Source of the DNA: a virus
Taxonomy: Duplodnaviria > Heunggongvirae > Uroviricota > Caudoviricetes
IMG/VR virus record: IMGVR_UViG_2681813454_000002
Location: 1 to 46,959 of that record
Length of the DNA: 46,959 nucleotides
Strand: one strand, 5' to 3'
Made by a program: the position numbers and the translations under genes. Below the pieces are notes generated by a model that saw only the letters and a program-made list of their open reading frames with translations, was not told where the DNA came from and made no database searches. This document shows positions 18,315 to 19,017 of the stretch, one piece after another. The number at the start of each line of letters is the position of its first letter. The first letter of the stretch is position 1.

Positions 18315-18530
18315 CTCACAATTCAGGCGGTTGACTGTTGTCTGGTTTGCGGGGAGTTTGTTAAAAGAAACTGGCATGGTGAATCCCCCTGTGCGGAGGG
18401 GCAATCAGCGAGTAGGTATATGGGATAATCGCGGATTCAGGTGCTGGTACTGAATTCACCGGGAGGCACCCGGCACCATGCAATGGCACATAGCGCCACT
18501 CTCCAGCCCCTCTCCGGAGGGGCTTTTCTG
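18315..18530 (+). ncRNA. Candidate structured small RNA, repeat unit A
   Basis: Conserved blocks shared with unit B (CATGGTGAATCCCCCTG.GCGGAGGGGC, TCACCGGGAGGCACCCGGCACCATG) ending in a CCCCTC-TCCG-GAGGGG plus T-run terminator; no credible ORF. Confidence 0.4.
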
Positions 18531-18782
18531 TGCCGGATACATCACAGTTTCTGGAACCTTAGGTACTACAGTATCAGTCAGGGTGCTATATTTTCAGATG
18601 TGATGAAAGCCTGTCAGCAGGCAGGGCGTATCGGAAATGACCCAGTAGAGAAAACGTTGACTCAGATACCGGTGCTGAGTTACCGGGAAACCGGCATCAC
18701 ATGACCGCTATCCTTCCAGGCCCATCCGCTCCGGTGGGCCTTTTTACTGCAGAAAACAGGTTCCCCGTTAAATGCTATGTTG

Positions 18783-19017
18783 CTCACAATTCAGTAAGTT
18801 GACAGTTGCCTGTCAGACTGGGCATTTGTTAAAAAAATTTCGCATGGTGAATCCCCCTGAGCGGAGGGGCGACTGGTGACGGTATAATCTCTGATTATCA
18901 AAACGAGAATGACGCGGGTTTAGTGGCACCGGGCTGAACTCACCGGGAGGCACCCGGCACCATGTGCATGATGATACAGATACGCGGCTTTAGCCCCTCT
19001 CCGGAGGGGTTTTCTTG
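18783..19017 (+). ncRNA. Candidate structured small RNA, repeat unit B
   Basis: Second copy of the same conserved blocks and the same terminator hairpin (18994-19016); no ORF conserved between the copies. Confidence 0.4.

Follow-up and report, generated by a model that had tools for sequence, protein, structure and literature searches.

A tandem array of three STnc100/PasD-family small RNA genes, probably encoding Hfq-associated regulators, in the lambdoid moron slot of an Escherichia coli prophage

The stretch of DNA analysed here, referred to as the window, is the whole of IMG/VR virus record IMGVR_UViG_2681813454_000002 (46,959 nt), a lambdoid prophage of a phylogroup-B2-type Escherichia coli. 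Between its tRNA genes and its lysis genes lie three related plus-strand units, named A, C and B in their order along the DNA, which belong to the STnc100/PasD family of small RNAs (sRNAs) and are followed by a convergent sRNA candidate on the minus strand. Upstream of this slot, in the Q/pR' region, are an antiterminator gene, a methylase gene and three tRNA genes of the ileZ/argN/argO type (18020-18269), namely tRNA-Met(CAU), which RefSeq labels tRNA-Ile, tRNA-Arg(UCG) and tRNA-Arg(UCU). Downstream follow, in order, a truncated DUF1737 gene and the genes for the holin, YdfR, lysozyme and Rz. A preliminary description of the locus had equated this position with the one at which Shiga toxin (Stx)-converting phages carry stx, and a Stx2a phage indeed has stx2AB in exactly that place. 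The array region is 100% identical to that of E. coli SF-088 and 99.9% identical to those of NU14, UM146, PMV-1 and ATCC 11775. The features of the locus are as follows; P1 to P5 denote helices, and R1 is a covariance model of the family described below.

18284-18309, plus strand: intrinsic terminator closing the tRNA cluster, 5' of the array; it forms inverted repeat I1 with 19023-19034.
18315-18373, plus strand: predicted promoter region of unit A, with CTCACAATTCAG (18315-18326), TTGACT (18331-18336), -35 element TTGTCT (18338-18343), an 18-nt spacer and extended -10 element TGtTAAAAG (18359-18367).
18374-18530, plus strand: unit A RNA, about 157 nt, matched by Rfam RF02076 and by R1 with these exact ends.
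18374-18381 with 18474-18481 (P1), 18416-18423 with 18451-18458 (P4) and 18460-18474 (P5), plus strand: helices of unit A, which also has P2 and P3; the minimum free energy (MFE) fold shows the architecture.
18482-18504, plus strand: single-stranded linker of unit A, followed by the terminator (18505-18524) and a U-tract.
18584-18592, plus strand: predicted extended -10 element of unit C, TGcTATATT.
18598-18746, plus strand: unit C RNA, about 149 nt, a diverged paralog; below the Rfam threshold, recovered by R1 and, folded alone, of the same architecture.
18598-18605 (AUGUGAUG) with 18695-18702 (CAUCACAU), plus strand: P1 of unit C.
18703-18717, plus strand: linker of unit C, GACCGCUAUCCUUCC, followed by the terminator (18718-18741).
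18783-18841, plus strand: predicted promoter region of unit B, with CTCACAATTCAG (18783-18794), TTGACA (18799-18804), -35 element TTGCCT (18806-18811) and extended -10 element TGtTAAAAA (18827-18835).
18842-19017, plus strand: unit B RNA of the STnc100 family, about 176 nt, with linker 18966-18991 and terminator 18992-19011; matched by Rfam and R1.
About 19203-19023, minus strand: sRNA candidate of the EcOnc08/21/42 group, carrying the seed motif CCUUGCC and, at 19050-19029, a terminator.

The preliminary description had recognised units A (18315-18530) and B (18783-19017) as direct repeats, and all six of the sequence blocks it listed are present in both in the same order. The two units are 81% identical over the 265 columns of a MAFFT alignment. 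A repeat search returned a shared segment of 88 nt (80% identity), another of 31 nt (97%) and a terminator repeat of 28 nt (89%). Exactly two copies each of the 25-mer TCACCGGGAGGCACCCGGCACCATG and the 28-mer CATGGTGAATCCCCCTGNGCGGAGGGGC are present in the window, where 100 shuffles give an expectation of 0.00. Both units end, as had been described, in a GC-rich hairpin with a T-run of the intrinsic-terminator type (18505-18524 and 18992-19011). The U-tracts behind the three terminators are short and interrupted (UUUUCU, UUUUCUU and UUUUUAC). While A and B were correctly identified, the count of two units was wrong, as a diverged third unit at 18598-18746 had been missed.

Units A and B match the Rfam family RF02076 (STnc100, a gammaproteobacterial sRNA) with 136.3 and 161.0 bits, respectively, both spanning model positions 1-206, and the curated gathering score of the family is 47 bits; the Rfam comparison thus supplied the family name that the preliminary description had left blank. 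R1, a covariance model built from 24 distinct family members with unit C and PasD excluded, scores the two units at 167.9 (A) and 144.7 bits (B). Unlike STnc100 proper, unit C stays under the gathering score: a permissive Rfam scan matched 18574-18747 with 30.1 bits (E 6e-4 for 3.4 kb and 4e-5 for 251 nt). R1 recovers it at 18598-18746 with 47.5 bits (E 3.7e-10) and also recovers PasD1 and PasD2 at 38-40 bits. The C-type subfamily that slips under the Rfam threshold is present, in two variants (C and C'), in 673 complete E. coli genomes (~12%) and also in five sequenced phages. Of 5426 complete E. coli genomes, 2787 contain unit A-like sequence, at up to 11 places per genome and with 2156 records at 99% identity or more. 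A sequence scan of 596 Gb of contigs with CATGGTGAATCCNCC, a pattern of 14 specified bases, returned only chance matches in unrelated phyla.

Units A and B have the prophage location and multi-copy spread of STnc100 in common with the other members of that family, of which there are 11 copies in EDL933 and multiple copies in Salmonella LT2. All 11 Rfam-annotated copies of EDL933 have RNA-seq reads and one, STnc100_4, is Northern-positive (PMC5331693); the published coordinates of STnc100_4 refer to NC_002655, and the nearby locus of CP008957 is of a different, 138-nt type. Further, STnc_100 was detected by quantitative PCR (qPCR) in outer-membrane vesicles of Shiga toxin-producing E. coli (PMC12370729), and the primers used in that study are exact matches to positions 18375-18394 and 18449-18468 of unit A. 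The interpretation of the repeats as prophage small RNAs was therefore right, since A and B are full-length STnc100 matches with homologues that are expressed, Hfq-associated and situated at the same prophage position; the finding is real and the element is already known. Two other identities were rejected for the units, namely the P1 C4 antisense RNA, the family being STnc100/PasD/EcOnc27, and AgvB/AsxR, for which no RF02702 or RF02703 match was obtained at the gathering score or at E ≤5 and which contrast with units of 149-176 nt.

The architecture of the family consists of an 8-bp P1 around a four-way junction (P2, a variable P3, P4 and P5), a linker of 15-26 nt and the terminator. Units A and C, each folded alone, adopt it as their MFE structure. 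From a MAFFT alignment of 24 distinct units RNAalifold recovered P1, P2, P4, P5 and the terminator unguided. In this alignment 97.4% of the cells are paired, compared with 51-53% when the partners are slid by one column, and ten pairs, all of them in P4 and the terminator, change on both sides, a result matched by none of 500 shuffles. One proposed stem was not borne out: GGTGAAT/ATTCACC is without covariation, and 17 of the 24 sequences cannot form its sixth pair. It is replaced by the closing helix P1, in which GGUG pairs with the CACC of CACCAUGC. In unit C the closing helix is AUGUGAUG/CAUCACAU rather than the GCAUGGUG/CACCAUGC of A and B, with four of the eight pairs compensated. Between the variants C and C', whose P2 and terminator diverge, pairing is preserved at each of the six altered helix pairs, and the linkers are 100% identical. 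As MAFFT misregistered P2 and P5 of C and PasD when these were aligned with A and B, a covariance-model alignment was used for the wider set. With C-type and PasD-type members included (67 distinct sequences), 26 of the 34 pairs are altered on both sides (five of eight in P1, four of five in P2, a single pair in P5) and 98.1% are paired, although this alignment was fitted to the model and is thus biased toward structure, which lessens the support it lends to P1, P2 and P5. The compensatory changes back the helices, as expected from the selection on RNA structure that had been suggested, and the covariation supports the closing helix, the four-way junction and the terminator.

The position of the RNA 5' end can be approached through PasD1, whose 5' end was estimated at NC_011601:1060260 from RNA-seq coverage, with its size confirmed on a Northern blot (PMC8550237). 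This position is the G of GCAUGGUGAAUCC (GCAUGGUG), which is the first base of P1. Among 53 distinct upstream flanks there are three unrelated promoter types, each with a -10 element ending ~7 nt before P1. Type I, found in A and B, has TTGTCT or TTGCCT, an 18-nt spacer and TGtTAAAA(G/A); the PasD type has TTGACT followed by TATTAAAAA; and the C type has TGcTATATT. The sequence GGGTGCTATATTTTC at the unit C -10 element is identical in the diverged C' variant, whereas the sequence farther upstream differs. Because the PasD1 5' end and the spacing of all three promoter types point to the first base of P1, transcription of the units would start near 18374, 18598 and 18842. The first ~29 positions of the RF02076 match in unit A correspond to 18345-18373, covering TTTGTTAAAA and the spacer, and the 5' part of the Rfam model is, judged by the PasD 5' end, probably the -10 region of the promoter, upstream of the real RNA 5' end.

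The perfect TTGAC(A/T) of type I promoters is placed 7 nt upstream of where a -35 element should be, and some members have lost it, while TTGTCT persists. Across the 53 flanks, TTGTCT/TTGCCT and TTTGTTAAAA stand at a fixed distance from P1 even where TTGAC is absent. The -35 region (18331-18343 and 18799-18811) resembles a tandem duplication of 7 bp, GTTGACT|GTTGTCT in A and GTTGACA|GTTGCCT in B. A CTCACAATTCAG box, retained across many family members at roughly -59 to -48 in type I promoters, might serve as an UP element or bind a regulator; within it is CUCACA, the PasD target motif, which may be a coincidence. The promoter assignment also touches on two polymorphisms associated with the risk of haemolytic uraemic syndrome (HUS) in O157:H7, a T/C single-nucleotide polymorphism (SNP) and the deletion of a T, located respectively at +90 and +103 after stx2B (PMC12711010). 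Both fall in the extended -10/discriminator of the stx2-linked unit of the Stx2a phage Stx2_95 (L244:3040-3063, equivalent to window 18827-18842). As the GCAUGG of this STnc100 unit begins at +104 after stx2B, the polymorphisms lie in the predicted promoter and may alter the expression of the sRNA rather than its sequence.

In 40 distinct units the P3 region and the linker are discrete, unrelated cassettes that reassort between the conserved blocks; for example, one unit combines the body of B with the linker of A, and a third P3 type is found with either linker. The linkers of A, C and B are mutually unrelated. Chimeras of PasD obtained by ligating and sequencing interacting RNAs (RIL-seq) map to its last ~50 nt, with the seed UGUGAG (PMC8550237), and the position of this seed is the linker. 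By analogy with PasD, and given the perfect conservation of the C linker, the linker is most likely the seed of the units. With one scaffold and three unrelated linkers, the array most likely supplies three different specificities.

Arrays of this kind recur. Three units around a C-type middle unit are found at nine IMG/VR prophage loci, four units at one locus and two units at two loci, and the exact tRNA-A-C-B arrangement is present in ~318 complete genomes. The order of the units varies among prophage arrays: E. coli M217 has three units in another order (another type, C', A-type). The viable phage PhiR5_2 carries three. The four-unit array (L129:2270-3350, minus strand, of IMGVR_UViG_2861053794_000003) consists of diverged units with variant P1 arms, GCGUGGUG and AUAUGGCG. 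No description of tandem STnc100 arrays was found in the papers that mention STnc100. In EPEC (enteropathogenic E. coli) strain E2348/69, prophage PP6 has an A-type unit (L246:338-492) whose promoter and P1 5' arm are replaced beside an ISEc13 transposase; it is probably a dead copy and still faces the minus-strand sRNA candidate.

The minus-strand candidate of the window is ~93% identical over ~200 nt to E2348C_1409.E2348C_1408.IGR of EPEC (NC_011601 1444797-1444978, minus strand), an Hfq-associated RIL-seq candidate with partners that include the 5' untranslated regions of cfa and dppA. The target motif of the EPEC candidate, GGCAAGG, is complementary to the CCUUGCC in the window. No Rfam family matched the minus-strand candidate, and an identity with AsxR or AgvB was rejected on that ground. 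Convergent pairs of Hfq-binding sRNAs at the moron site downstream of pR' have been described for at least eight Sakai prophages (Tree 2014, PMC4104026). The window has the layout of these dyads, with the plus-strand units ending at 19017 and the minus-strand homologue at 19023.

Taken together, the locus is very probably a tandem array of three STnc100/PasD-family sRNA genes in the lambdoid moron slot, encoding what are by homology Hfq-associated, trans-acting regulators. Units A, C and B would be transcribed independently from the lysogen, each from a sigma-70 extended -10 promoter initiating at the first base of P1, with the convergent minus-strand sRNA gene after them. The junction and the terminator would stabilise the RNAs, Hfq would be bound as in the homologues PasD1/2 and the EcOnc RNAs of enterohaemorrhagic E. 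coli (EHEC), and the linker would carry the target-recognition seed acting in trans, so that the array yields three specificities.

Comparison with known systems places the array more closely. PasD1 and PasD2 (EPEC E2348/69; EcOnc13 in EHEC) share with the units the 5' sequence GCAUGGUGAAUCC, P1, P2 and P4, and a linker followed by a terminator, and they too are situated between Q and the lysis genes. However, they are without P5, have another promoter type (TTGACT...TATTAAAAA) and score 38-41 bits on STnc100 models; their UGUGAG seed is present in none of A, B and C. PasD and the three units find each other only through covariance models, and a 2026 Storz-laboratory preprint holds that PasD and STnc100 share ancestry, with Pas copies that are distal and not tandem. 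PasD is supported by Northern blot and RIL-seq (PMC8550237), and PasD1/2 provide the only interactome data of the family. EcOnc27/sRNA103, located 3' of stx2B in Sp5 and 933W, belongs to the same family, lies in the same slot and is likewise the plus-strand member of a dyad. The STnc100 copy just downstream of stx2B overlaps this Hfq-bound RNA (PMC12711010), which is supported by crosslinking and analysis of cDNA with Hfq (Hfq-CRAC; PMC4104026) and by Northern blot (PMC7873438). Overexpression of sRNA103 raises fimZ and espA, the evidence being confined to overexpression (PMC12711010, PMC7873438). The stx2-linked unit of Stx2_95 (L244) has the promoter type of unit B and a homologue of the same minus-strand partner downstream, while the Sakai EcOnc27 differs in having another linker (CAGUAUACAGAG...) and in being a single unit rather than three.

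AgvB and AsxR (RF02702/RF02703) occupy the same prophage locus in the same dyad architecture, but they are 51-60 nt long with a conserved 42-nt 3' region, form the opposite-strand half of the dyad and show no sequence relationship to the units, with no Rfam match anywhere in the window; their sponge logic would possibly be analogous if unit B pairs with MicA. By analogy only, OmrA/OmrB and PrrF1/2 may be compared, which are adjacent duplicated sRNA genes with partly common sequence. In OmrA/B it is the seed that is common and the remainder that differs; the present array has a common scaffold and differing presumed seeds, and its units reassort among phages. The element svsR of prophage NC-SV (PMC12803456) was also considered for identity with the array and dismissed, as it is another element, located at the 3' end of cI.

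It should, however, be noted that several observations weigh against reading the units as Hfq-associated, trans-acting sRNAs of this architecture. The MFE structure of unit B is a different fold, and the single-sequence folding z-scores of A, B and C are modest (-1.1 to -2.6). P1, P2 and P5 are nearly invariant in the 24-unit set of STnc100 proper, in part because the search pattern fixed their 5' halves, and the near-invariance of the junction core suggests some constraint besides simple seed pairing, which the proposed mechanism leaves unexplained. A consensus promoter scan of the region did not include the proposed unit promoters in its list. The abundance of PasD barely shifts in a DESeq2 table for EPEC (table S2: log2 fold changes of +0.55 and -0.18), and if the comparison is, as it seems, one of an hfq mutant with the wild type, Hfq-dependent stability is not uniform in the family. 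Finally, some EDL933 STnc100 copies bear ribosome footprints, with a ribosomal coverage value of at most 3.2 (PMC5331693).

A special case of the sRNA reading is that unit B, at least, is an anti-sRNA sponge, the linker of which titrates the 5' seed of MicA, a core sigma-E sRNA; this is a possibility to be held tentatively, and its odds appear rather poor. When 29 linkers were screened against 17 core sRNAs, of which MicA was the one whose sequence was verified, MicA was the single sRNA to stand out, and neither the A nor the C linker gained a convincing partner. Positions 18968-18991 pair with nucleotides 1-27 of MicA, the sequence of which was verified from NC_000913.3 (MG1655), in a duplex of 22 bp containing one bulge and two mismatches (-24.1 kcal/mol), an energy reached by none of 3000 shuffled MicA seeds (z -4.8), and the complementarity stops exactly at MicA +1. 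The match is kept by five B-type variants and by the divergent linker of the second unit of L129 (z -7.2), while 23 other linker types reach -12.4 kcal/mol or weaker. By strict alignment score the match takes the top two of 459 linker-by-sRNA pairs (shuffles 1/1500 and 0/1500). There is also precedent at the same locus in AgvB acting on GcvB and AsxR on FnrS (PMC4104026).

Yet the match is post hoc, with a shuffle p of ~0.1 after ~170 effective tests and a blastn E of 1.7-4.5 for a 4.6-Mb search space, and duplexfold energies are similar for the plainly non-specific GcvB and ArcZ. The matching variants are homologous and hence not independent, the EcOnc27-type variant u0 is weaker (z -3.3, 14 of 3000 decoys), and MicA is the only sRNA of the panel with a verified sequence. 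The EHEC table of hybrids sequenced after crosslinking and ligation (CLASH) has no MicA-EcOnc hybrids, though the Sakai EcOnc27 has another linker, and no paper tying MicA to the family was found. Nor can the effects of EcOnc27 on fimZ and espA be used in support of MicA, because the Sakai linker, as read from CLASH, differs; a link from MicA to espA for the sRNA103 data was rejected, as a micA deletion had no consistent effect (PMC5909449) and the Sakai EcOnc27 is without the B-type linker. The cassette exchange and the arrays are observed, and a broader reading joins them to the sponge as a modular carrier with a fixed junction body, exchangeable seed cassettes and two to four stacked units, of which the B-type cassette is the anti-MicA sponge; taken whole this is slightly more doubtful again, its MicA function being conjecture. 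If true, the sponge would de-repress the MicA regulon (ompA, phoPQ, lamB) in lysogens and extend the anti-sRNA principle of the locus to the envelope-stress regulon in extraintestinal pathogenic E. coli.

Other explanations fare less well. The units could act in cis, as a stack of terminators shielding the lysis genes in the lysogen from read-through of the tRNA, sRNA and pR' transcripts and passed by Q-modified polymerase on induction, the RNAs being by-products. The 3.5-kb region does hold 13 terminator-like sites where 3.5 are expected, at least five of them plus-strand sites in the interval from the tRNAs to the holin gene, and the array lies inside the Q-dependent late operon. The biology of lambda Q makes read-through on induction plausible, and StxS (PMC7547250) is a precedent. 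A terminator, however, needs only a hairpin and a U-tract, which leaves a covarying junction of ~110 nt with its own promoter, as well as the Hfq association and abundance of the homologues, unexplained. As the sole account a cis role is improbable; as a secondary role alongside that of the sRNAs it is plausible. Just as improbable is that the junction core (P1, P2 and P5) is a protein-binding or structured functional RNA, recognised by ProQ, a phage protein or a nuclease, with the linker incidental. P1, P2, P5 and loops such as AGGCA are almost invariant across differing P3 and linker cassettes, and conservation beyond the needs of pairing suggests recognition of specific bases. But the architecture is kept although PasD is without P5 and the P1 and P2 sequences of unit C differ, the interactions of PasD map to the linker, and the conserved blocks could be mere homology anchors for recombination.

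Recombination also underlies the reading of the repeats as leftovers of exchange between lambdoid phages, mosaic junctions with no RNA function, for which the reassorting P3/linker cassettes and the differing unit order among prophages speak. This is very unlikely, as the helices are kept by compensatory changes, each unit retains a promoter and a terminator, and homologues are abundant RNAs with documented transcripts. Least likely of all are small proteins translated from the conserved 5' AUG (MVNPP...) or from an AUG in the P1 3' arm after GGAGG. The near-leaderless AUG is conserved, GGAGG stands 11 nt before the second AUG, and there are the ribosome footprints in EDL933. However, the first open reading frame (ORF) ranges from 1 to >56 codons among 67 distinct members, with frames and stops diverging after MVNPPxRRG; the AUG is absent in some members; and the variable positions of the P2 loop fall at codon positions 1 and 2. 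The second ORF stays open across the terminator, its sequence tracking the linker type. The observation that no ORF is conserved thus stands, and the small-protein explanation is already largely refuted.

As stated, the finding that these repeats are structured sRNA genes is of little weight, since the prophage sRNA family to which it leads back is already catalogued and very common, but it has some practical value. To what was known are added the third unit, the assignment of promoters and starts, the evidence for exchangeable linkers, the prevalence of the arrays and a testable MicA hypothesis. No family member has an established mechanism, and the reassortment of linkers together with the arrays offers a concrete route to targets. 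Further, the sRNAs of the family are unannotated in RefSeq and phage records, which carry spurious calls of hypothetical proteins in their place. The RefSeq Prokaryotic Genome Annotation Pipeline (PGAP) places no non-coding RNA in the slot and has a partial 'hypothetical protein' pseudogene over unit A (L245:9385-9510, corresponding to window 18364-18489, minus strand), and phage GenBank records (H86-H90) have hypothetical proteins called over the C-type unit.

Several features of the surroundings deserve mention. The DNA methyltransferase gene (16922-17970) is broken into two ORFs that overlap, one of 294 and one of 65 amino acids; RefSeq records it as frameshifted in SF-088, and it is intact, with 1059 nt, at the same position in the Stx2a phage. 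The DUF1737 gene downstream of the array (19244-19471) is flagged in RefSeq as partial, with its C-terminus missing. Elsewhere on the plus strand, isrK (9056-9132; Rfam 58.7 bits) lies beside a C4 antisense RNA (9157-9244; 81.4 bits), the two matches presumably marking an immI-like antirepressor control region of the prophage, and near the end of the window there is a full-length Rfam match to IS009 RNA (46354-46552, plus strand, 225 bits).

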